From: Planctomycetales bacterium
GTDB taxonomy: Bacteria > Planctomycetota > Phycisphaerae > SM23-33
DNA: 47,458 nt
Direction: 5' to 3'
NCBI GenBank assembly: GCA_030592655.1
Contig: JAUVIQ010000002.1
Span: 1 to 47,458 of the forward strand
A program made the position numbers and the translations under genes. Positions 5,576 to 42,698 of the stretch are shown here, in pieces (position 1 is the stretch's first letter; every line of letters begins with the position of its first letter). The notes under the pieces are model-generated. The model was not told where the DNA came from, did not search any database, and was given only the letters and a program-made list of their open reading frames with translations.

Positions 5576-7024
5576 TCAATATCGTTTTCTCTTTACCTCA
5601 ATTTTAGGTCTCATTCTGTTGATGAAAAAATATCGTAGTGCGTCTATGAAATGGTCCGGGCCGTCTTTTATGGGCCGGTCGGGTTGGCCTGATGAGCCGG
5701 GGAGAGGGTAATGATATTCCCGAAACGCCTTTATCAACCCCCGGCACTTTCGGTCGATCTTCAGTCTCGCCGGTCCCAAAGCCGGCGCAAGCGCCGCCCG
5801 GATTAATTCCAGACCCTCATTAATCGTCGATGCCCGCCAGCAGCAGCCTATCCCCGCCGATGCCAGTAGTTCGGTACACGCCGCCCCGCTGGTGGCTTCG
5901 CGCGCATTACCGGCTGGGTCAACGTAAGTCGTTACCACCGGAGCGAGATTATGGGCGAGTATCTCGACGGCGTGCTGCGCGACAGGCCGGCGAGTGTGAG
6001 CGTACTCGTCAATGACGTGCACGTCGCCTGCCGGCGTAACCTGAACCCACAAGCACACCAGCGGACTGGTATATCCGAAATCAATCGCCCGATACGTCGG
6101 CCAATCGGAGCAGTACTCCACGTCGGCGACGTGCAAAGCCGGGTCGAACTCGCCGAATACCAGCCAGTCCCGCTTAGCGCCGATGCAGAGCATCTCCGCC
6201 TCCCACGCACTCCGGCTTGAACGGGCTTTAATGGCGATTGCGTCGTCGATTCTGAAGAATCCGTCTGCCTTCCTGGCCTTCCCCTGACAATCGTCGTGCA
6301 GGGGACAGCCTTCGCACTGTCGCTTCGACTCGTCGCATTTCTCGATTACTTCCCACAGACACCACTGGAACATGCGGAAATTCTTTTCCTGCTGGGCCTG
6401 CTCGACCAGATGCTCCATCAGCCCGCCGGGACGGTGGAGCGTGGAGAATATCTCGATCCCACCCCGCGTCTTGCCCCTTGAGCGGGTAGTGAACTGCAGC
6501 GCGCCCCAAACCTCCGGATCGAATAAGTCCACTTCGTCGCATCGGATTTTCTGAGCGTGTTGGCCTCGGACCGCCTTTTGAGATTGGCTGAGCATACGTA
6601 TATCCGCGCCGTTGGTCAGGCGTATCCGCTCGCGGGTCATTCTGCCGGCGACTGCGCCGGAAAGTCCGTCCATCGAGAGGAATTTTCGCAGATAATCAGC
6701 CAGGCGGTCGGACTGGTCGAACGATCCGCCGATGATGCGAATATCTATCGGAGCCTTGTACAGTGCGTCCAGCAAAGCCGCTATCGCCGCGAGCATTGTC
6801 TTTCCGCCACCCCGATTCGCCCATACCAGCAAATCGGCTGGAGCGTCGTCGTCCAGGAAACTCGCCGACAGGTAATCCATCGGCGACTGATGCGACGGGC
6901 AGAGGGCCTCATCGGGAATGTGCATACCCAGTTCGTCTTTAACCCACTGGGCAAGTTCGTCCCGGTTCTCAGGCTCTTTCGGCGGCGTGAATTGCGGTTT
7001 GGAATCATCTGTTGAGTCTGGCAC
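5576..7024 (-). CDS. Phage terminase large subunit (TerL)-like ATPase/nuclease
   Basis: Walker A-like WANRGGGKTMLAA and Walker B-like IRCDEVDLF. The C-terminal RNaseH-like nuclease region includes AIDFGYTSP, VDPAG and DGPDHFIDALRY. GTG start at 7024 is preceded by AAGGAG. Confidence 0.8.
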   Translation of the reverse strand: MPDSTDDSKPQFTPPKEPENRDELAQWVKDELGMHIPDEALCPSHQSPMDYLSASFLDDDAPADLLVWANRGGGKTMLAAIAALLDALYKAPIDIRIIGGSFDQSDRLADYLRKFLSMDGLSGAVAGRMTRERIRLTNGADIRMLSQSQKAVRGQHAQKIRCDEVDLFDPEVWGALQFTTRSRGKTRGGIEIFSTLHRPGGLMEHLVEQAQQEKNFRMFQWCLWEVIEKCDESKRQCEGCPLHDDCQGKARKADGFFRIDDAIAIKARSSRSAWEAEMLCIGAKRDWLVFGEFDPALHVADVEYCSDWPTYRAIDFGYTSPLVCLWVQVTPAGDVHVIDEYAHTRRPVAQHAVEILAHNLAPVVTTYVDPAGNAREATSGAACTELLASAGIGCCWRASTINEGLELIRAALAPALGPARLKIDRKCRGLIKAFREYHYPLPGSSGQPDRPIKDGPDHFIDALRYFFINRMRPKIEVKRKRY

Positions 7025-7036
7025 GTGTTCTCCTTT

Positions 7037-8330
7037 TTAGATGGTGTCGGGGTTGAATGAATTTCGAGGAAGGACGGCGTTCGCCGCTGCGAGGTAGTAG
7101 TTGTAGTTTAGTTTCCGACCTGTGAATCGTCCGAAGGCGCTCATTCCGCCCCGTTCAAAGAACGGGTGGATCGCTCCCATCGTGGCTAATGCTTCGACAA
7201 GGGGCATCGGGATTGTTCGCAGCGCGTGGCGGACAAGTCTGACTGCCAGTCCGCATGAGCGATATATCGGATGAACGACGACCCGCGAGATGCATTCTAT
7301 CTCCGCGTTGAGCAGATAAGTTGATGCCCGACGGTCGGGGCTTACGTAACGCTTTCCCGTCGCGACGTTCCGCCCCCTGCAGCACAGCACCGGCGGCGAA
7401 ACCACCAGAACGGCTGCCACTTCGGGCGTACCGGGATGCGGGGGATCGACAGGAGCGCGTATCGTCCAGACACGCTTGTGTGCCGCCGGCGGTCCGGTCA
7501 GGTAATGAAACCGACTCAACGCGCGATAGTCCTTGATAGTTCCCCGCTCGATTTTCCAATCGGAAGCCCATGCCTCGCTGAAGCCTGTCCCTTGGGGGCG
7601 AGCACGCCAAAAGAAAAATGTGCGTTTTGGGGTGAATTTTGTTGGCGTGCTCGCCCCCAAGGGACAGGCTTCAGCGAGGCATGACAGATACGCGCCGGCG
7701 TTCAGTGGTTTGACTATCGTGCGGTCCGGTTTGATGATCTTCAGGAGTTCATCTCGCGGCGTCGAGATAATCATCGCCAGACCGTATCGCCGGACGAGTT
7801 TTCGCAGCCCCGATGCCAGAACACCTGCGGTGGCTGAATCGAGGGTCGAAGCGAACTCATCAATCAGAAGTAATTTCGGCTCGCCCGATGCGGACGCCTT
7901 CCACACCGCCGACGCAAGCGCCAGACGATATAACTGCCCGCCCGAAAGGCGCCTTGCCGGAGTAATCAGCATCCTCGCGTCGGCCAGGCCGCAACGAGAC
8001 AAAATCGCCAGTCATTCGAATGGCTGGGCTTCGGGCCAAACACGCAATGGCGGGTCTGCTTTCAGACGAGAGGGCGTCCAGGTCCAGCGTTATCGCATCG
8101 GGCACAACCTCCGCGACGGCCCGGAGCAACGATGTCTTCCCCCCGCCGCTGGGTCCAACTAAGGAAATAATCTCGCCCGGAGATATGCTCAGACGGAAAT
8201 CATCGTAAAGCGTCTCGATACACCGATCAGACAGGCCGAACATTCCGGATATCACGGAGGCGTCGGGATCATCGACAGGCGAACGGGTAATTTTGACGCT
8301 GATTGGTATATCCCATTTTGGCGTGGTCAT
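7037..8330 (-). pseudogene. ABC-type ATPase fused to a GNAT-like C-terminal domain; reading frame disrupted
   Basis: Walker A GPSGGGKTS (ORF 7860..8330) is in a different frame from the ABC signature LSGGQ and Walker B LLLIDEF (ORF 7037..8002). The second frame opens just after TGA at 8012-8014, so a 1-nt shift near 8000-8015 would join them. The C-terminal part (DWKIERGTIKDYRALSRFHY...ISRVVVHPIYRSCGLAVRLV) looks GNAT-like. Confidence 0.65.
7569..7683. mobile_element. MITE-like palindromic element inserted within the ATPase/GNAT coding frame
   Basis: Perfect 42-bp inverted repeat: 7569-7610 (catgcctcgctgaagcctgtcccttgggggcgagcacgccaa) and its exact reverse complement at 7642-7683, separated by a 31-nt spacer. 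The host ORF stays open through it (LSCLAEACPLGASTPTKFTPKRTFFFWRARPQGTGFSEAWA). Confidence 0.55.
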
Positions 8331-8794
8331 TTACATCTCTCCTGATGAAGTGGGTATTTTTCCTCCGCCTTTACCAGTCCGGCAACGATCCCATCAACCT
8401 CGGCGAGCGTTCTGCGAATCGCATGATACCGAAGCGAAGTCGCATCGACTGTTGCCTGAAGCGACTTTCCCTGAAGAATGTGGGATTTGACAACGGCGAA
8501 CTGTTCGTCGTTGAGCAGGTGGAGGCTTCGGGCGACTGAGACGAATTGTGGCGAACTGATCCGGACGATTAACCGGCGTATGCGACGCCGAACGATAGAG
8601 GGGTTGGTTCGGTTAATCTGGGCGATTATTTTCGTCGGCTGGTCGTAGATAAGCACCGCACGGAGAAGGTTCCTGTCGTCGGGATCGAGCAGGTCCGTCC
8701 TCGCTTCGATGACGCTCTGGTCGCTGAGGAATCCGGATTTATCGCGCCGATTTCCGACGGATCGAAGAAAATTCTCCTTCAGCGTCAACGGCAT
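8327..8794 (-). CDS. DNA-binding protein with two sigma-70-region-4-like HTH segments; possible small-terminase analogue
   Basis: PTKIIAQINRTNPSIVRRRIRRL and KSLQATVDATSLRYHAIRRTLAEV look like HTH units. The stop overlaps the start of the ATPase gene (8327-8330). GAGGAG lies upstream of ATG 8794. Confidence 0.5.
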   Translation of the reverse strand: MPLTLKENFLRSVGNRRDKSGFLSDQSVIEARTDLLDPDDRNLLRAVLIYDQPTKIIAQINRTNPSIVRRRIRRLIVRISSPQFVSVARSLHLLNDEQFAVVKSHILQGKSLQATVDATSLRYHAIRRTLAEVDGIVAGLVKAEEKYPLHQERCK

Positions 8795-8810
8795 GATTCG
8801 CTCCTCAAAA

Positions 8811-8841
8811 GGATTGCGGATTGCGGATTGTGGATTGCGGA
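8811..8841. repeat. Tandem (GGATTGY)x4 heptamers in the 5' leader of the HTH gene
   Basis: Read directly: ggattgc ggattgc ggattgt ggattgc gga. Confidence 0.9.
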
Positions 8842-9058
8842 CCCACGGTCCTATGGGGATTCTTCGGTAATCCGGTATTCCCGATGCCCGCTGTCTGTAT
8901 TACAAATACCATATATTACATAAGTATGACAACTATCATGCAGATGTCAAGAATAATCTTACAGAAAATATCTACAAATAGTTAGAAAGTACGGATTGAC
9001 GGGTCTATACTATTGGGCGACTTGGGGTTAGGGATTCAGAACGAGGGAGAAAATAATT

Positions 9059-9856
9059 ATGAGCCTCGGCGAATTAATACGTAACCGGCGTGAAGAAAAA
9101 CAACTCACGCAGGACCAAACGGCGGCGCGGGCGGGTATCTCTAAGCAGTACCTCTCGAACATTGAAACCGACCGGATAAAGAACCCCCCTTCCGACGGTG
9201 TGCTTGAGCGATTGGAAGTCGAACTGGAGTTCAAAGCGGGTCAGTTGCGAAAACTGGCCCACATGGCGAGAACGCCGATGGACGTCCGTGCAGAGCACGA
9301 ATCCCTCACCGCCGAGGTCGAAAAACTCCGAAGCATCCTGAAGCAACTACAACTACTGGCGGGACGGAAAAAGTCCACGCAGAGCAGGACGAAAATAAAC
9401 GCCATCGCACGCCAATTGAAATCCGCGAAATCCAACGTCTCGGACGCACTGTCGGCCGGAAGGACTGTTCCCATTATAAACAAGGTCTCTGCCGGGTATC
9501 CGCACCACTTCACCGACCTGGATTACCCGCCCTCGGTGGCCGACGAATACATCCGGTGCCCCGACGTACACGACGCGCAGGCATTCGCCGCACACATCGT
9601 CGGCGATTCGATGGAGCCGAACTATACAGAGGGAAACCTGGTAATTTTTTCGCCCAATACGCAGGTCAGGAGCGGGGACGACTGCTTCGTCCGCTTCAGC
9701 GCCGACAGTTCCACCACGTTCAAGCGGTTTTACACCGCCGAGGGCGGATCGATACGCCTCCAGCCACTGAACGACAAATACCCCGCCGAGATATACGAAC
9801 GCGAGGATATCGACGGCCTCTGGCCTGCGATTATGCGGATCGAACGAATACGATAG
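9059..9856 (+). CDS. XRE-HTH / S24-peptidase LexA/CI-like autocleavable repressor
   Basis: The N-terminal HTH is LTQDQTAARAGISKQYLSNIE. There is an Ala-Gly site in KVSAGYP, a catalytic Ser in GDSMEP and a Lys in TTFKRFY. It is divergent from the HTH-ATPase-TerL operon. Confidence 0.85.
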   Translation: MSLGELIRNRREEKQLTQDQTAARAGISKQYLSNIETDRIKNPPSDGVLERLEVELEFKAGQLRKLAHMARTPMDVRAEHESLTAEVEKLRSILKQLQLLAGRKKSTQSRTKINAIARQLKSAKSNVSDALSAGRTVPIINKVSAGYPHHFTDLDYPPSVADEYIRCPDVHDAQAFAAHIVGDSMEPNYTEGNLVIFSPNTQVRSGDDCFVRFSADSSTTFKRFYTAEGGSIRLQPLNDKYPAEIYEREDIDGLWPAIMRIERIR

Positions 9857-13340: not shown

Positions 13341-13415
13341 GGTTATTAATGATGATTATACCGATTGTCAAACGCGAAAAGGTATGAAAAATCTATCTTG
13401 TCAAAGGAGCCGAAA

Positions 13416-14060
13416 ATGAATAACGCCCACATCATTAATCCGATCCTGATTTTAGTGCTGACTTCTGTAATGATTCTCTACATAACCGGGTGCCGGAACC
13501 ATTCGTCCACCAGTCCCGATAGTCAGGTCGTTCATTCGCCCCTGGCCGGTAAAAAAATACTCATGGTCATCGCTCCGAAGCAGTTCCGCGATGAGGAACT
13601 TTTTGTTCCGAGGGAGTATTTTCTGGTTCGCGGCGCGAAAGTAACGGTAGCAAGTTCAGCAACGGGTGAGATTCGCGGAATGTTGGGGCGGACGTTCTCG
13701 CCGGATGCGAAACTCGCCGACGTTTCGGCTACAGACTTCGACGCGGTTATTTTTGTCGGAGGGGGCGGCGCAGAGGCGTATTTCGACGATCCGGTCGCCC
13801 ACAAACTCGCCCGCGACGCGGACGCCGGCGGGAAAGTCCTCGGCGCTATCTGCATCGCGCCGGCCATTCTCGCCAAGGCCGGCGTGCTGAAAGGGCGTTC
13901 GGCGACGGCATTCGCTTCGGTCCGTGAAATACTCGTATCCGGCGGGGCAAGGGTTATGGATTCGGCATGTGTCCGGGAAGGTCGGATCGTTACGGCGGAC
14001 GGACCGGCAGCGGCTGAAGAATTCGCCTCCGACGTCGCCAAGGCGCTGACCGCAAACTAA
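13416..14060 (+). CDS. DJ-1/PfpI-family protein with lipoprotein-like N-terminus
   Basis: I trimmed the start to ATG 13416 (AAAGGAG upstream). The signal/lipobox-like N-terminus is ILVLTSVMILYITGC. The nucleophile-elbow Cys is in GAICIAPAILAKAG. Confidence 0.8.
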   Translation: MNNAHIINPILILVLTSVMILYITGCRNHSSTSPDSQVVHSPLAGKKILMVIAPKQFRDEELFVPREYFLVRGAKVTVASSATGEIRGMLGRTFSPDAKLADVSATDFDAVIFVGGGGAEAYFDDPVAHKLARDADAGGKVLGAICIAPAILAKAGVLKGRSATAFASVREILVSGGARVMDSACVREGRIVTADGPAAAEEFASDVAKALTAN

Positions 14061-14118
14061 AACCGACGGATAAACCCTGATGTGCATCGGGACGAATCCG
14101 CCGAAACGGACCGGAATC

Positions 14119-14148
14119 GATTCGTGCCGATTCGTGCCAATTGGTGCC
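14119..14148. repeat. Tandem decamers gattcgtgcc x2 plus aattggtgcc
   Basis: Read directly, just upstream of the putative promoter of the GHKL operon. Confidence 0.85.
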
Positions 14149-14156
14149 ACGTCGAA

Positions 14157-14185
14157 TTGACTTGTCCCGGCAATTGTCGTAATCT
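14157..14185 (+). promoter_or_regulatory. Sigma-70-like promoter candidate for the GHKL-dcm-vsr operon
   Basis: TTGACT (14157-14162), a 17-nt spacer, then TAATCT (14180-14185). Confidence 0.4.
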
Positions 14186-14192
14186 CTCGGCC

Positions 14193-14363
14193 ATGCCCGA
14201 CGAGAAAGCGATACTCGCCGCATTGAGAAAGTTTGCCGACGGCGTGACGGCCAAGATAACAACCTTGACCACCGGCGAGCCTAGCGGCAGGCAGTTCGCC
14301 TCATCAGGGGCCTTTTACTTATGGGGACTTTGCCGAGCGCGTCCTCACGATGGAGGTCGATAA
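14193..14363 (+). CDS. Small upstream ORF (56 aa); possibly a leader peptide or a gene remnant
   Basis: ATG at 14193 lies 8 nt after the -10 box. MPDEKAILAALRKFADGVTAKITTLTTGEP looks protein-like, but the rest (SGRQFASSGAFYLWGLCRARPHDGGR) does not. It ends at TAA, 3 nt before the GHKL start. Confidence 0.2.
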   Translation: MPDEKAILAALRKFADGVTAKITTLTTGEPSGRQFASSGAFYLWGLCRARPHDGGR

Positions 14364-14366
14364 CCA

Positions 14367-16436
14367 ATGGCCGCTGAAACACACCAAGTACTTCTTCCCG
14401 GGCGTACGCCGGAAGAACTTGCTCTTACGATCGCCGGGAATATCGTGAAACACCTCGGCGTACAGATGTACGCGGGGCGGCCCGTTCCAGCAATTGCAGA
14501 ACTTATCTCTAACTCATGGGACGCGGACGCGATAAAGGTCAATGTCCGCCTTCCGCTGGATGAAGCTTGGGATCCGACCAACCAAGACCAATTCATTGAG
14601 GTTTCAGACAACGGCAATGGCATGACTTGGGACATGGTTCGGTACGCATACCTTAACGTAGGGCGTGATCGACGCAAGACGGAAAAGACCGACAAATCTC
14701 CGGGAGGCCGCCCACTTCAAGGACGAAAAGGTGTTGGGAAGCTAGCGGGGTTTGGTATCGCCGACACTCTGGAAGTTCAGACGGTCTATAAGGACGCTGA
14801 CTCCAGTGTGAAGGAGAAGGCGCTTATTTGGTTCAAGCTAGATCTGTCGGACATAACGAAAATAGAGCAGGGCCCGGCTCCCGTTGACGTGGTATTCGCC
14901 GGTCCGATTAGCAGGGCTCCTGCGGGTGCGAGAAAGACCAAAGGAACGACGGTTGCTCTGCGGCACCTGCACGAACGGAAGGCCCGGAACGCTGACCGTT
15001 TTCACCATAGCATGGCGCAACGATTCTTGCTCATTGGGCCAAAGTTTCGCGTTCGTATAAATGGCGAAGACCTACGCGAAGAAGACATTCAACTTCAGTG
15101 GAGGGAACCAAAGAACGGCTGGGCCACGGACAACGTTACGGGTTGCGGTCCTATCAAGTACTGGATTGGATTCACCCCGCAGCCACGCAAACAAAACGAA
15201 GGAGAATTGAGCGGGATCCTCATTTACACTAGGGGTAAAATTTCACAGGAGCAGACTTTCTTTGAAATAAGCGGAGGCGTTACCGGTCAGCACGGCCTGC
15301 GCTACATGGTTGGCATGGTGAAGGCCGAATGGCTTGATGCTGGTATTGATGCGCCGGACCACATTGCTACGCCGAGAGATTCGATTGCATGGGAGAGCCC
15401 TGAGGGAACTGCGTTCAAGGAGTGGGGACAGAATCTACTAAAAAAATGCCTTTCTGAATGGGCTAAGTTCCGCGCCTCTCTGCGAGAAAAGCAGATCAAG
15501 GAAGTGAGTCCGGAGTTAATGACCCGTATCGAACGGCTGGCCCCCTCCTATAGAGATGTCGCGCTGCAATTTGTGGACAAGTTCAAGTCGGTGGAGATGG
15601 AACCAACCGAATTCCAGGACATTTTGTCTTGGTTCCTCGACGCATTGGAAAACGCAACCTTACGAAGCATACTCCAAAAACTCAGAGAGACCGACATTGC
15701 GGACCTTCGGCAATTGGACAATCTGCTTTCCAAAATGGAAGTGCGGACTGCCGTAACACTTCTTCAGATCATCGACAGCAATCTTGCTGCAATCGAAACC
15801 CTTGAAAAAATGCACCGGCAAAACGCTAAGGAACGTGGGGTTATCTCTACGCATCTGGAACGGAACCCGTGGCTCATGGATCCGACATGGATGCTCAACA
15901 AGGCCGAAGGACGAGTCGCCACTTGGATCAAGAGGGAGTTTGGGCTTGAGGAAAAGGGGGCGGCTGGAGATGCCGACCGGGCTGATTTCTTCTGCGTTGC
16001 CGTTGGTGGGACGCTGCACATTGTCGAGATCAAACGGGGTGCGCACGTTGCTACGGTCAAAGATGTAAATCAGGCGGATAAGTACCGAAAGTACGTCGTA
16101 AAACGATTTAGCGAGCTGACGGACCATAAGGCGATCAGGTACGCATATGTCCAGAGTCACCTCATCGCCGCCGAGCTACACGATGACGCGCAAAGCATTA
16201 AGGAATCCTTCGCCAACAGCGGTTGGGTGTTCTTCACAACCTGGGATGACCTCATCGAACGAGCGAAGCAGAGTCACAGCCAATTCCGCGAGATTCTTCA
16301 AAAGAGAGCGAAAGAATCCGAGGAATCCTCATATCTTGGGGTGCAGAACGTTTCTGGTGGCGGTGCGAGTGAACCCCAGCCAACAAAGAAGGCCCAAAAG
16401 AAGGCGAAACGCAAGAACAAAGGGCGCAGGAAATGA
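14367..16436 (+). CDS. GHKL (HATPase_c_3/MORC-like) ATPase fused to a C-terminal PD-(D/E)xK (Shedu/DUF4263-like) nuclease domain
   Basis: Bergerat motifs are [12 protein letters not shown] (N box), DNGNGM (G1) and [12 protein letters not shown] (G2). The C-terminal [20 protein letters not shown]...QADKYRKY fits D-x13-E-x-K plus Q..Y. A Lys-rich tail reads [16 protein letters not shown]. Confidence 0.8.
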
Positions 16437-17539
16437 GTGTCCATAGGCCTGTCGCTATAGACCTGTTTGCCGGATGCGGTGGCCTTACTAGGGGTCTCCG
16501 AGACGCGGGATTCCACGTCGCGGCGGCGGTCGAAATCAACCCCATCTCGGCGCGGACGTACAAATGGAACAACCGCCGCACCCGATTGATTGAAAAGGAC
16601 ATCCGCGAGGTGTCCGCCAAGGAACTCCTTCAAGCCGCCGGTAGTAAGCAAATCGCCCTCTTGGCCGGATGCGCCCCTTGTCAGGGGTTCTGTTCCCTGA
16701 CGGCAAAGTACAAGCGAGAGGACCCGCGCAACGAGCTTCTCCTCGTTATGGCTAAACTCATCGGGGAGATTCGGCCCGAGGCGATCATGATGGAGAACGT
16801 TCCCGGCCTTGCGGGCCGAGGGAAATCCATCTTCGACAAGTTCCTGAATGTCCTGCGGCGTCTCGGATACCAGTACGACTGGCGCATTGATCAGATGGCG
16901 GACTTCGGCCTCCCGCAATCACGCCGACGCCTAGTCCTTCTCGCCGGACACGGCTTCAAAGTGGCTTTCCCGAAGGCGTTGTACGCCCGCTCACCAGAAT
17001 GCAATTCCGGCTTGGAACCGTGGACTACGGTGAGAGATGCCATCGGTCACATGGGCGCGCCGGTTACCCTGAGCACGGCGCTCGGTAACGGTGGTCCGCA
17101 GTCGCACAACTGGCACGTGGTTCGAGATCTTCAATCGCAAACCAAGGAGCGCCTAAAAGCGGCAGAACCCGGACAGACATGGTTGAAGGTTAACGAATCA
17201 ATACGCCCGCGTTGCCATCAGAACGGTTACAATGGCTTCACCAACGTGTACGGCAGGATGGCGTGGGACCAAGCGTCACCAACCATCACGGGTGGATGCA
17301 CGACCCCCTGCAAGGGAAGGTTTGGCCACCCGGACAAACGTCGATACACTATCTCCGTCCGTGAAGCAGCGCTGCTCCAAGCGTTCCCGGAGAACTATCG
17401 CTTTGTCACCGACCAGATGGATGCTGCGTGCGACATGATTGGCAACGCCGTTCCGCCCCTGTACGCGAAGTTAGCCGCCAAAGAGGTCCTGGCCGCTCTG
17501 AAGGAACGCAACCATCGCAAGGGGGGCGCCAAACGATGA
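16433..17539 (+). CDS. dcm: DNA (cytosine-5)-methyltransferase
   Basis: Motif [10 protein letters not shown], motif IV APCQGF, motif VI ENVPGL, motif [14 protein letters not shown], motif X GNAVPP. ATGA overlap with the upstream gene at 16433-16436. Confidence 0.9.
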
Positions 17540-17985
17540 GCCGGTGGCCGGGTAATGCTGAGATGGAGCGCACAACGTTTGGCGGCTTGTCTCGCGGGCA
17601 ATTGATGTCCCGCATTCACAGCACCGGAAACCAGACGACGGAAAAGCGACTGGTTGTGCTACTCCGAAGAGCGGGCTTGAGCGGATGGCGCAGGCACCGC
17701 CCGCTTCTCGGACGGCCCGACTTCGTGTGGCCAAAGGCCAAGGTCGTCGTCTTCGTTGACGGATGTTTCTGGCACGGCCATGACTGCGGCAAAAACGTTA
17801 GCCCAAAGACTAACGTTGAAGCTTGGCGCGAGAAGATACGCCGTAACAAGGAACGGGACCGACGCGTAGACCGTTTACTTCGCCAGCAGGGCTGGCAGAT
17901 TGTGCGAATATGGGAATGCGAACTTGCCAAGAAGCCTGACAGCTGCATTGACCGAATCAGAAAAGCGTTGGGTACTCGAGGTTAA
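17536..17985 (+). CDS. vsr: Very-short-patch repair endonuclease
   Basis: [24 protein letters not shown] is the Vsr hallmark. I trimmed the start to ATG 17536, which overlaps the dcm stop as ATGA. Confidence 0.9.
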
Positions 17986-18940: not shown

Positions 18941-18965
18941 GTCTTCGTCCCCTGGGGACGAAGAC
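18941..18965 (-). other. 11-bp hairpin abutting the 3' end of the tRNA-Tyr-like gene
   Basis: gtcttcgtccc / gggacgaagac with a 3-nt loop and no U-tract. It may be a processing or terminator element. Confidence 0.4.
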
Positions 18966-19048
18966 TGGGAGCGGGTGGATTCGAACCACCGTAGGCGTAC
19001 GCCGTCAGATTTAAAGTCTGATCCCTTTGTCCACTCGGGCACACTCCC
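18966..19048 (-). tRNA. tRNA-Tyr-like class II tRNA with anticodon UUA (ochre-suppressor type)
   Basis: Reverse complement (83 nt): GGGAGTGTGCCCGAGTGGACAAAGGGATCAGACTTTAAATCTGACGGCGTACGCCTACGGTGGTTCGAATCCACCCGCTCCCA. The acceptor stem is GGGAGTG/CGCTCCC (one G.U). The anticodon stem is TCAGA/TCTGA with loop CTTTAAA, giving anticodon TTA (19012-19014). It has a long variable arm, a T arm GGTGG-TTCGAAT-CCACC, discriminator A, and no encoded CCA. The D and anticodon arms closely resemble E. coli tRNA-Tyr as I recall it, except for G34 to U. Confidence 0.8.
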
Positions 19049-19088
19049 AATCGGGGATAGGATGATACCATCATTTCAGAATTAGTCA

Positions 19089-19160
19089 AGCCAGCGGAGG
19101 GACTCGAACCCACAACCCCGGCTTTACAAAAGCCGTGCTCTACCGTTGAGCTACGCTGGC
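19089..19160 (-). tRNA. tRNA-Thr (anticodon UGU)
   Basis: Reverse complement: GCCAGCGTAGCTCAACGGTAGAGCACGGCTTTTGTAAAGCCGGGGTTGTGGGTTCGAGTCCCTCCGCTGGCT. The acceptor stem is GCCAGCG/CGCTGGC. The anticodon stem is CGGCT/AGCCG with loop TTTGTAA. The T stem has one U-U mismatch. Confidence 0.9.
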
Positions 19161-19240: not shown

Positions 19241-19585
19241 CTCACGTCCACTGCATAAGCAGTTTATACAACATCGCACAAATCCTGTCATACTTATCGT
19301 CTATTTCGTCATGAGTTTTCTTTGAAAGGTAACCACAAGCCAAAGCAAAATCAAGCCAGCCTCTCGTCTCTTCGGCAGAACCCCAGGCATCGGTTATATG
19401 CCTGCCGAAAACATTCTTATACCTGCGTTTCGCAAAACCCTCGCGGAGGTTTGACGGGACGCTACGAGAGCTCCGGCGAATCTGATCGGTCAGGCTGTAT
19501 TTTTCTTCAGGCTAAAAAAGACTTCGAGGCATGAAAAACATCCATCGCCGCTTCAAAAGACAGACAATACACAACTAAATCGTGA
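19241..19585 (-). pseudogene. Four-helix-bundle protein (23S rRNA intervening-sequence protein family), frameshifted
   Basis: One minus frame gives (GTG 19585) AGVRTVHDLVVYCLSFEAAMDVFHASKSFLA*. A second frame gives PEEKYSLTDQIRRSSRSVPSNLREGFAKRRY...WGSAEETRGWLDFALACGYLSKKTHDEIDDKYDRICAMLYKLLMQWT* (stop 19241). Together they match the family pattern FPKEE.Y.L..Q.RR...S...N..EG as I remember it. The break is in a T6 run near 19510-19516. Confidence 0.5.
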
Positions 19586-19663
19586 ACCGTCCTAACGCCG
19601 GCCACTGCAACACTCCCACGGTCTTTTCATTTGGTTTTATCGCTCTGCTGTTTTTTACGGTAT

Positions 19664-38835: not shown

Positions 38836-40044
38836 TTAGGTTTTCTTCGGTAGTTGGCCGACCGGGCGGTCCGGTCCGGGGCGAAAGTCGGGGACCTTGA
38901 ACTTTACCGAGTCCTTCTCGACCGATTCGCTCGCCAGTATCGCCGGAGCCGTCACCTCGCAGGCCTTATAGACGTCCATATCGACGGGCACGCCGTTGAG
39001 TATCGCGTCGCGGAACGTGGCAAAGATGGTAGCGTCTGCGCCACCGTGACCGCTGGTGCGAACGTAATCGTCGGATTCTCTGCCGTACTCGTCGGATTTC
39101 AGCGGGTAGGTGCTCCAATCCATCGCCGCTGGTTCGTTATCGTGCGTTCCCATCGCGGTGGTCCACATCTTGCATTAGTCCCACCCTGCCCGTTTCCATT
39201 CGACCGATCCTTCCGTGCCCATCAGTGCGTACCAGTGATGGCCGGTCTCGCCACGATGCGGTACGGGGCAGTTAAACCCGCACGACAGCCTCATCAGCGT
39301 CCCCTTGGCCGTAAGCATCAACGCAACCTCTATGTCCGGTTTCCCAGCCTCCGGGACGCGAGAATTCTCCGGCAGCGTGCCCATAGCGACGACCTCGACG
39401 ACACGATCATCGAGTATCTTCAGCAGCGGGCTCAGTTCGTGTGGCAGATACAGGATGGGATGCAGGCCGTTTCGCCACGTCGGACGGGCGTGCGGATTGG
39501 AGCGGGCCTCGTCCAGCGACAGGTATCGGCCGGTCTGATCGTCGTAAAAGAACCAATGCATACCGTAGTATCCGATGTACTGCCCTTCGGCGTGGACTAT
39601 CCTGCCCAGCGTTCCGTCCTCGACGATCCGCTTCCATGCATCCACGAAGCCCCAGTGACGTGCCTGCTCGCCGAGTTGGTAGATCAGTCCCGTCTTCTCA
39701 ACGGCAGCGACGAGCCGCCAAAGGTCTTCCATAGTAAAAGCGGCGACGACCTCCGTCATAACGTGGACACCGGCTTCGAGCGCCTCGACGGCCAGATCGA
39801 CCTGCGTGTCGGGATCGCTGCATATACCGACCGCATCAAGCGAGGCATCCTTCAGCATGGTAGAGAAATCATTAAAGGATGCCACGTCCGGGTCGTTGAC
39901 GTCCCGCATGGTTTTTTCTATCTGCTCGGTGAACCGGTCGCAGACGGCAACGAGTTTGTAGCCTTCCATTTGGCCGAAGTGTTTGGCCCAGCATTCCCGG
40001 CCCCGAGGACCCAAGCCGACCAGACCGACGCGAATTTCCTTCAT
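38836..40044 (-). pseudogene. Gfo/Idh/MocA-family oxidoreductase interrupted by a single in-frame TAA
   Basis: ORFs 39175..40044 (Rossmann N-terminus MKEIRVGLVGLGPRG) and 38836..39168 (C-terminal GHGGADATIFATFRDAI region) are in the same frame. They are separated only by TAA at 39175-39177: ...VEWKRAGWD * CKMWTTAMG... Confidence 0.75.
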
Positions 40045-40211: not shown

Positions 40212-41453
40212 GTGGCGGAAGAATTTTTTACTCGCGAGTTCGATAACGGACTGACTCTGGTAGCCCAACCGATGGCGCAGGTTTCTTCATCGGCGATAAC
40301 AATCGCCCTGCCGGCGGGAGCGTCCCGCGATCCGGCTGACTCTGCAGGCTCGGCATCGACGGCGTCGCTCTGGCTTCTGCGGGGAGCGGGCGACCGCGAT
40401 ACGCGACAAATCAACGACGTGCTGGACTCGCTCGGATGCCAACACCACGAGGCCGCCCAGAGTGAGCATCTGCTCGTCTCGGCTGCTCAACTGGGAAGGA
40501 ACCTTCCTAAGGTCCTGGAAGTCTATGCCGACATTCTCGGCAGACCTCGCCTGACCGATGAGACCTTCATCCCCTGCCGAGACCTCGTCGCGCAAATACT
40601 CGACGGTCTGGAAGATGAACCGATGCGCAACTGCCACGTGCTGATGCGTGAGAAGTTTTATCCGTCGCCGCTGGGCAGGAACCCGCTCGGAACGAAAGAA
40701 TCCCTGTCCGGTCTGAAACCCGAATCGCTGCGGAAACATCTGAAAAACCACCTGACGCCGAACGGAACGATTATGGCGGTGGCTGGGAATTTCGACTGGA
40801 AAGAACTTTCAGAAACAGTTGAAAAACACTTCGGCGACTGGAACGGTCCGACACCGGACGAAGTATCGACCAGTCCGGCCGAACAGGGCGCCACGCATAT
40901 AACCAAGGACACCGCCCAGGTCCAGATAACGCTGGCGTACCCGGCTGCGACTATTAACGACGAACTCAACTACGCCGCGAGGATAACGCAGATGATCCTT
41001 TGTGGTGGAATGGGCGCTCGTCTGTTCACCGAGGTTCGCGAAAAGCGAGCGTTGGTCTATGCGGTAGTGGCGCGGTACCACAGTCTCAAGGATTTTGCCG
41101 GTTTGTTTGTCTATGCCGGAACGACGCCGCAACGGGCACAGGAGACGCTGGACGTTACCGTCGGCGAGTTGCGCCGCCTGGCCGAAGGCGTGGGCGAAGA
41201 TGAACTTGCCCGCGCACGGACGCAACTCAAAAGCGCCTTGATCATGCAGGGCGAATCGACATCCGCCCGCGCAGACGCGCTGGCGGGAGATTTCTTTCAC
41301 CTGGGTCGGCTGCGGGGTCTGGATGAGATTTCCGCAGCGATTGACGCCGTAACCGTACAAGACGTAATGGAATACGTCCACGCGTTCCCAGCCGAGAACC
41401 TGACAACACTGACCATCGGACCTGATAAACTCCAGGCTCCGAATCCGACATAA
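40212..41453 (+). CDS. M16 (pitrilysin) family protein lacking the HxxEH motif (non-catalytic partner)
   Basis: GTG start. The fold is insulinase-like (FDNGLTLVAQPM...), but there is no zinc-binding HxxEH where it would be expected. Confidence 0.8.
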   Translation: MAEEFFTREFDNGLTLVAQPMAQVSSSAITIALPAGASRDPADSAGSASTASLWLLRGAGDRDTRQINDVLDSLGCQHHEAAQSEHLLVSAAQLGRNLPKVLEVYADILGRPRLTDETFIPCRDLVAQILDGLEDEPMRNCHVLMREKFYPSPLGRNPLGTKESLSGLKPESLRKHLKNHLTPNGTIMAVAGNFDWKELSETVEKHFGDWNGPTPDEVSTSPAEQGATHITKDTAQVQITLAYPAATINDELNYAARITQMILCGGMGARLFTEVREKRALVYAVVARYHSLKDFAGLFVYAGTTPQRAQETLDVTVGELRRLAEGVGEDELARARTQLKSALIMQGESTSARADALAGDFFHLGRLRGLDEISAAIDAVTVQDVMEYVHAFPAENLTTLTIGPDKLQAPNPT

Positions 41454-41471
41454 CACACACCGGAGATTCAT

Positions 41472-42690
<1,219 letters not shown>

Positions 42691-42698
<8 letters not shown>

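Follow-up and report, generated by a model that had tools for sequence, protein, structure and literature searches.

The E. coli ochre suppressors supC and supM are alleles of two tRNA-Tyr genes, tyrT and tyrU, in which G34 of the anticodon is changed to U. Bacterial TyrRS relies on A73, the G1-C72 pair, U35 and the long variable arm as determinants, G34 being a minor one, and ochre suppressors are typically weak. A counterpart has been described in small-colony variants of S. aureus, where a Lys149-to-TAA mutation in aroD is rescued by a spontaneous anticodon change (G34-to-U) in either of two tRNA-Tyr genes; the suppressed strains make a K149Y enzyme and show wild-type growth (PMC5449664). 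Suppressor tRNAs that read nonsense mutations are reported from about 0.3% of standard-code bacterial genomes (PMC13092985).

Here we analysed a tRNA gene of this kind in a contig of 47,458 nucleotides, examined over its full length and called the window in what follows. As in supC and supM, one substitution, G34 to U, gives a class II tRNA-Tyr the anticodon UUA and leaves its other identity elements in place. It also follows directly after a tRNA-Thr(UGU) gene, as tyrU follows thrU in E. coli. In contrast to these suppressors, it comes from an uncultured Planctomycetota (Phycisphaerae-like) metagenome contig and not from laboratory selection, and both its activity and the redundancy of tRNA-Tyr genes that E. 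coli has are predictions here. With the S. aureus case it shares the pairing of a Lys codon turned into TAA in a metabolic enzyme gene with G34-to-U in a tRNA-Tyr gene of the chromosome, and a Lys-to-Tyr enzyme as the predicted product. In S. aureus, however, there are two tRNA-Tyr genes and the causal link was established by complementation, whereas in the window the two changes co-occur within 20 kb. Finally, the anticodon is cognate to a stop codon, as in phage or mobile-element suppressor tRNAs and in recoded lineages (code 4, code 25, TAG- or TGA-recoded phages), but here the gene sits at a syntenic chromosomal locus, it is not conserved in the clade, and TAA is a normal terminator.

The tRNA is either a fresh instance of a well-known kind of suppressor or an error. 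Our preferred reading, to which we give a probability of roughly 55%, is that an ordinary chromosomal tRNA-Tyr gene was point-mutated from G34 to U and is a real suppressor allele of the supC type. The features on which the argument draws are collected in Table 1.

Table 1. Features of the tRNA locus and of the ochre-interrupted gene (positions are those of the window)
Feature	Position	Strand	Evidence
tRNA-Tyr-derived gene, anticodon UUA, class II, A73, no encoded CCA	18966..19048	-	ARAGORN, Rfam, cloverleaf fold, L125 ortholog
Anticodon U34-U35-A36; + strand A19014 is the sole derived base, relatives have C (= G34)	19012..19014	-	sequence and alignments
tRNA-Thr(UGU), upstream partner of the conserved Thr-Tyr pair	19089..19160	-	ARAGORN; Rfam 67.5 bits; same pair in L121, L123-L127
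Sigma-70-like promoter candidate TTGACT-16 nt-TATCAT, extended -10 TG	19062..19089	-	consensus scan, 10/12 matches
11-bp hairpin GUCUUCGUCCC-CAG-GGGACGAAGAC, directly past the tRNA 3' end	18941..18965	-	sequence
Gfo/Idh/MocA oxidoreductase gene with one ochre codon, candidate beneficiary of suppression	38836..40044	-	translation; Pfam PF01408, PF22725
In-frame TAA, codon 290; AAA (Lys) in the closest relative	39175..39177	-	codon comparison with L129

Structure and orthology of the tRNA gene

ARAGORN called a 'tRNA-Stop' with anticodon tta on the minus strand (19049..18965), and the Rfam tRNA model RF00005 matched 19048..18966 over its full length with 58.3 bits (E = 3.8e-10), against a gathering score of 29 bits. 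The 83-nt RNA (GGGAGUGUGCCCGAGUGGACAAAGGGAUCAGACUUUAAAUCUGACGGCGUACGCCUACGGUGGUUCGAAUCCACCCGCUCCCA) folds as a single strand into a cloverleaf plus an additional variable-arm hairpin. In the minus-strand reading, the acceptor stem GGGAGUG/CGCUCCC begins with the G1-C72 pair and is followed by the discriminator A73. The 5-bp anticodon stem UCAGA/UCUGA closes the loop C32-U33-U34-U35-A36-A37-A38, and the variable region of 14 nt contains a 4-bp stem, GGCG/CGCC. Position 34 corresponds to + strand A19014, the anticodon being read as 'taa' on that strand.

Of the properties expected from a bacterial tRNA-Tyr, the covariance-model match, the long variable arm, G1-C72, A73, U35, A36 and orthology were all found; the anticodon GUA was not, its G34 (the queuosine site) being replaced by U34. 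A scan of the genome collection using the anticodon arm and T-loop of this tRNA, with position 34 left free, gave G34 in 130 of 130 tRNA genes among the matches listed (at least 130 genes on 120 genome-collection stretches, mostly Pseudomonadota tRNA-Tyr; the window's lineage was not among them). Judged from these comparisons, the scaffold is that of a canonical bacterial tRNA-Tyr. Leu or Ser identity, the other class II possibilities considered, was ruled out: the D-arm, anticodon arm and T-arm fit canonical tRNA-Tyr, and the orthologs are called tRNA-Tyr(GUA).

Syntenic loci were recovered through close homologs of both flanking genes. They make up five independent loci: L121; L123, with a second copy (L124); L125, with a second copy (L126, GCA_030612725.1); L127 (GCA_023133135.1); and the partial L128. 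Their common gene order is exosortase, TPR, Wzc, tRNA-Thr, tRNA-Tyr, N_methyl, DJ-1, NikR, FAD oxidoreductase and LexA-like, and in every complete related locus ARAGORN found tRNA-Thr(UGU) followed by tRNA-Tyr(GUA). L128 starts inside the anticodon loop with GACTGTAAATCTGA, hence G34. In alignments A1 and A3, the column of position 34 is G in L121, L123, L124, L125, L127 and L128. Compared to L125 (alignment A3), the window tRNA is identical at 82 of 83 nt and the sole difference is G34 to U (T in the gene); the tRNA-Tyr genes of the remaining relatives differ mutually only by one D-loop or one T-loop base. By these alignments, the window gene is the ortholog of a resident chromosomal tRNA-Tyr(GUA) with one derived base, present in this genome alone. 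Since only position 34 is changed in an 82/83 match, the gene is no decayed pseudogene and the change should be recent, a very recent G34-to-U transversion being the best reading of the comparison.

These results bear on the initial annotation, which had been made from the letters of the window. It had described an 83-nt class II tRNA with the stem TCAGA/TCTGA, the loop CTTTAAA and a UUA anticodon, and the ARAGORN call, the Rfam score and the fold agree with it on each point. It had also equated + strand 19014 with position 34 and stated that a tRNA-Tyr(GUA) would need C there, which is the base that the relatives have, and the tRNA-Thr(UGU) gene that it placed ahead of the tRNA was recovered on the same strand (19160..19089). 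It had left three options for the origin of the gene. A point-mutated tRNA-Tyr and a base-call error survive, but a mutated duplicate does not: the orthologous syntenic tRNA-Thr/tRNA-Tyr locus rules out an extra, duplicated or horizontally acquired copy. The idea of a conserved natural suppressor fell on comparison with related genomes, all five loci examined having G34. An origin from a phage or mobile element was likewise ruled out, the locus between Wzc and N_methyl being syntenic in five relatives; no att-like repeat of the tRNA 3' end was found, and a search of the viral collection with the U34 scaffold gave no match.

The surviving alternative attributes A19014 to an erroneous base call or consensus, or to a variant of a minority strain that became fixed in the metagenome assembly, the population keeping tRNA-Tyr(GUA). 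We take this to be a serious possibility, short of even odds. The base comes from a single assembly, the organism having been sampled once: the collections searched contained no independent sample of it, and an exact-protein look-up of the window's Wzc gave no record. Among sampled relatives the closest, L129 from a Logan assembly (run SRR29278617), is 95.5% identical in nucleotide sequence at the Gfo locus, and the nearest homologs of the genes next to the tRNA reach 79% (Wzc) and up to 93% (N_methyl) amino-acid identity. G34 in every relative and in all of the at least 130 scaffold matches listed also favours an error. So does the direction of the change, G-to-T (C-to-A) being typical of oxidative-damage artefacts, and large scans for odd anticodons enrich rare errors. 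In addition, the change would be lethal if the tRNA-Tyr gene were single-copy. In many planctomycete genomes, which have about 45-55 tRNA genes, Tyr is single-copy. ARAGORN found two tRNA genes within the 47-kb contig, the part of the genome covered here, both on the minus strand. Against an error, on the other hand, stands its low a priori probability per contig: it would have to hit the exact base with the exact substitution that gives a functional suppressor.

Searches of the metagenome collection were made with two patterns. A lineage-specific pattern with position 34 free gave no match, and neither did a general pattern with T at position 34, a weak negative run without a G34 control. The absence of U34 matches marks the variant as rare and is equally compatible with an artefact and with a unique recent mutation. 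Should the base prove to be an artefact, 'suppressor tRNAs' from metagenome-assembled genomes may hinge on one unverified base.

The ochre codon of the Gfo/Idh/MocA gene

The protein encoded by the interrupted gene has full-length homologs of 402 aa that are 82-97% identical to it. All seven close homologs (7/7) read WDKCKMW at the place of the ochre codon, i.e. Lys at codon 290, and in an alignment of 119 homologs the column contains K46, R42, L16 and Y1. Taken with the AAA codon of L129, this comparison identifies the change as a Lys (AAA) to ochre (TAA) transversion at a variable position, not at a tyrosine codon. Because it falls on a Lys codon, the TAA counts as an ordinary nonsense mutation and not as evidence that TAA means Tyr; it could be one that is partly rescuable by a suppressor. 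Synonymous to non-synonymous codon differences relative to L129 number 26:9 before the stop and 11:3 after it, similar ratios which indicate that the 3' part of the gene is not decayed. The nonsense mutation is thus recent, suppressed, or itself an error.

With the preferred reading, a tyrosine-inserting ochre suppressor allele, the following mechanism can be proposed. Since the TyrRS identity set (G1-C72, A73, U35, A36 and the long variable arm) is kept, the predicted transcript should remain a substrate for charging with tyrosine. Pairing of its UUA anticodon with UAA, and probably with UAG by U34 wobble, would compete with the release factors RF1 and RF2. The expected outcome is an ochre suppressor of the supC/supM type, giving low-level read-through under the standard code. 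Tyrosine would then be inserted at codon 290 of the Gfo/Idh/MocA protein (K290Y, at the variable position), encoded about 20 kb from the tRNA gene, and suppression of this ochre codon may explain the tolerance of either mutation. For UAU and UAC to be decoded normally, another tRNA-Tyr(GUA) gene would have to be present somewhere else in the genome.

The observation itself is the co-occurrence of the tRNA G34-to-U and the Gfo Lys-to-ochre changes in one 47-kb contig, from which a functional link between the two mutations may be inferred. An ochre codon matching the anticodon, located in a conserved gene under purifying selection in the same 47 kb, speaks against an artefact at A19014, which would need a second coincidence. 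One ochre-interrupted gene in 38 could be coincidence. Against suppression also speaks the U that follows the Gfo ochre codon, since UAA followed by U terminates strongly in E. coli.

If the base is real, the window documents the textbook ochre suppressor derived from tRNA-Tyr in nature rather than in the laboratory, and in a phylum without a described case. Nonsense suppression would then arise and last, at least briefly, in wild populations, and the gene would be a bacterial tRNA scaffold ready for use in UAA suppression.

Stop-codon usage and the standard code

The 38 gene-sized ORFs of the window with Pfam or ortholog support end in TAA (16), TGA (13) or TAG (9), so that TAA accounts for 42% and TAA and TAG together terminate 25 of the 38. 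Among 46 genes called in three relatives with tRNA-Tyr(GUA), the corresponding numbers are 20 TAA, 9 TGA and 17 TAG. There is no avoidance of TAA as a terminator in the window, and its frequency is like that in the relatives. Alignments with L125 and L121 proteins extend to the last residues of the window's TAA-terminated ORFs, among them those for TPR, FAD oxidoreductase, DJ-1 and Poly_export. Near back-up stops were found in two of the 16 TAA-ending genes, the TPR gene having TGA as its next codon and hyp290 having TAA 7 codons on; the remaining 14 have no in-frame stop within 10 codons.

Most of what had been said about stop codons in the initial annotation was borne out. Its 'roughly half' of genes ending in TAA corresponds to 16/38, and the single in-frame TAA that it gave for the gene at 38836-40044 is present at 39177..39175 on the minus strand. 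Its statement that back-up stops are lacking is right for 14 of the 16 genes and wrong for the TPR gene and hyp290. Its argument against wholesale recoding agrees with both stop usage and the conserved C-termini.

That this lineage is changing its genetic code, giving TAA or both TAA and TAG over to tyrosine and using this tRNA as the dedicated decoder, is in our view extremely improbable. Such a change would account for a tRNA cognate to UAA and for a single in-frame TAA in one conserved gene, but recoding of TAA is contradicted within the window by stop usage, by the conserved C-termini and by the Lys identity at the in-frame TAA. TAA is the commonest terminator of the window, at a frequency equal to that in relatives with tRNA-Tyr(GUA) (16/38 and 20/46), and it ends proteins where their orthologs end. 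The in-frame TAA is aligned to Lys or Arg, Tyr being present in 1 of 119 homologs. Moreover, five relatives retain G34, so that the decoder is not conserved in the clade, and read-through would join unrelated adjacent genes. No new genetic code is indicated whether the base is real or not, and gene callers should stay with table 11 here.

Some adjacent genes share a reading frame and have only a TAA and a few codons between them: DJ-1, the 93-aa ORF and HATPase (13365-16436), M16a and M16b (40212-42698), and hyp321 and TerL (5576-8002). According to their orthologs, these are separate genes. The TAA codons of hyp321 (before TerL), hyp93 (before HATPase) and M16a (before M16b) allow an in-frame run-on into the next gene, no further in-frame stop being found for these three in the 600 bases checked, and read-through of the DJ-1 TAA would continue for 100 codons across hyp93 to its terminal TAA. 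An active ochre suppressor would thus yield fusion proteins by read-through of these same-frame neighbours. As TAA and TAG end 25 of 38 genes, with few back-up stops and three run-on TAA codons, a strong suppressor would be costly.

A bolder extension of the suppressor-allele reading is that a wild, uncultured planctomycete population stably uses a Tyr ochre suppressor to keep the Gfo gene, and perhaps other nonsense alleles, functional, possibly as a first step of UAA (and UAG) to Tyr codon capture. We consider this unlikely; if true, it would mean that informational suppression is at work in the wild. Stop-codon usage shows no genomic adaptation to a suppressor, a point in favour of an artefact.

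Flanking signals, contig integrity and neighbouring elements

The promoter-like site (Table 1) precedes the tRNA-Tyr gene by 13 nt and lies in the spacer that separates it from tRNA-Thr. Its TTGACT box and its TATC(C/A)T box are retained in the alignments of the relatives, which is consistent with a promoter function. The hairpin on the other side of the gene has no U tract, which makes a canonical terminator less likely than a processing or termination structure of another sort. A hairpin of different sequence is found at the same spot 3' of tRNA-Tyr in the relatives.

These signals bear on another possibility, that the mutation is real and the allele dead: G34-to-U would have inactivated one redundant tRNA-Tyr copy, through poor expression or charging or through release-factor competition, with no phenotype, and the allele will be lost. 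We regard this as quite improbable. The usual weakness of ochre suppressors, stop-codon usage without a sign of selection and the further degenerate genes of the window would fit it. However, the rest of the tRNA, the promoter-like site and the 3' hairpin are untouched, and the same change is active as a suppressor in E. coli and in S. aureus (PMC5449664). An active suppressor allele of a resident tRNA-Tyr gene remains the reading that we prefer.

Annotation with Pfam gave an ordinary bacterial chromosome, with an exosortase, PEP-CTERM proteins, a Wzc-type tyrosine kinase, MurD, PurB and M16 peptidases, and named homologs place the window in Planctomycetota, near Phycisphaerae. Of its 38 genes, 35 are intact and collinear end to end with their orthologs. 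Two accessory genes are frameshifted, the 23S_rRNA_IVP gene and a 419-aa ATPase gene beside the terminase. Both frameshifts are complex multi-base lesions and not homopolymer slips, and a noisy long-read assembly would look different. This otherwise clean state of the contig, together with the nature of the two lesions and their location in accessory genes, argues against a base-call error at position 19014.

Four further segments of the window differ from, or recur in, the related loci. A 4-kb island (14082-17985) lies between DJ-1 and N_methyl, genes that abut in L121, L123, L125 and L127, and it leaves the tRNA untouched. It contains the 93-aa ORF, a 689-aa HATPase_c_3 protein, a Dcm-type C5 cytosine methylase and a Vsr endonuclease, and looks like a lineage-specific restriction-modification or defence module.

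The 23S_rRNA_IVP gene (four-helix-bundle; 19245-19626, minus strand) lies between Wzc and tRNA-Thr, its frameshift consisting of TTTTCC-GCC changed to TTTTTTAGCC. L121 and L127 have this gene, L123 and L125 lack it. Its nucleotide identity to L121 is 96%, against 79% for the flanking Wzc protein, which suggests a recently exchanged small cassette.

In the AAA-type ATPase gene (7037-8330, minus strand), a neighbour of the large terminase gene, replacement of a 24-nt patch (8006-8029) has broken the reading frame in two. The patch is a near-palindrome, CGCCAGTCATTCGAATGGCTGGGC, that resembles GCCCAGCCATTCGAATGGCTGGGC in the tRNA-Tyr/N_methyl spacer of L128; it may be a small mobile palindromic element.

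The block that includes this gene (5576-9856) comprises the large terminase, the ATPase, a 155-aa protein and a LexA-like HTH/S24 repressor, in an order that is kept in L125 with about 83-91% protein identity. Where the fetched loci extend far enough, its genes are also found in L121 and L123, and Fic and MazF genes adjoin it. By its appearance the block is less likely a recent prophage than an old prophage remnant or domesticated element that has been passed on vertically.
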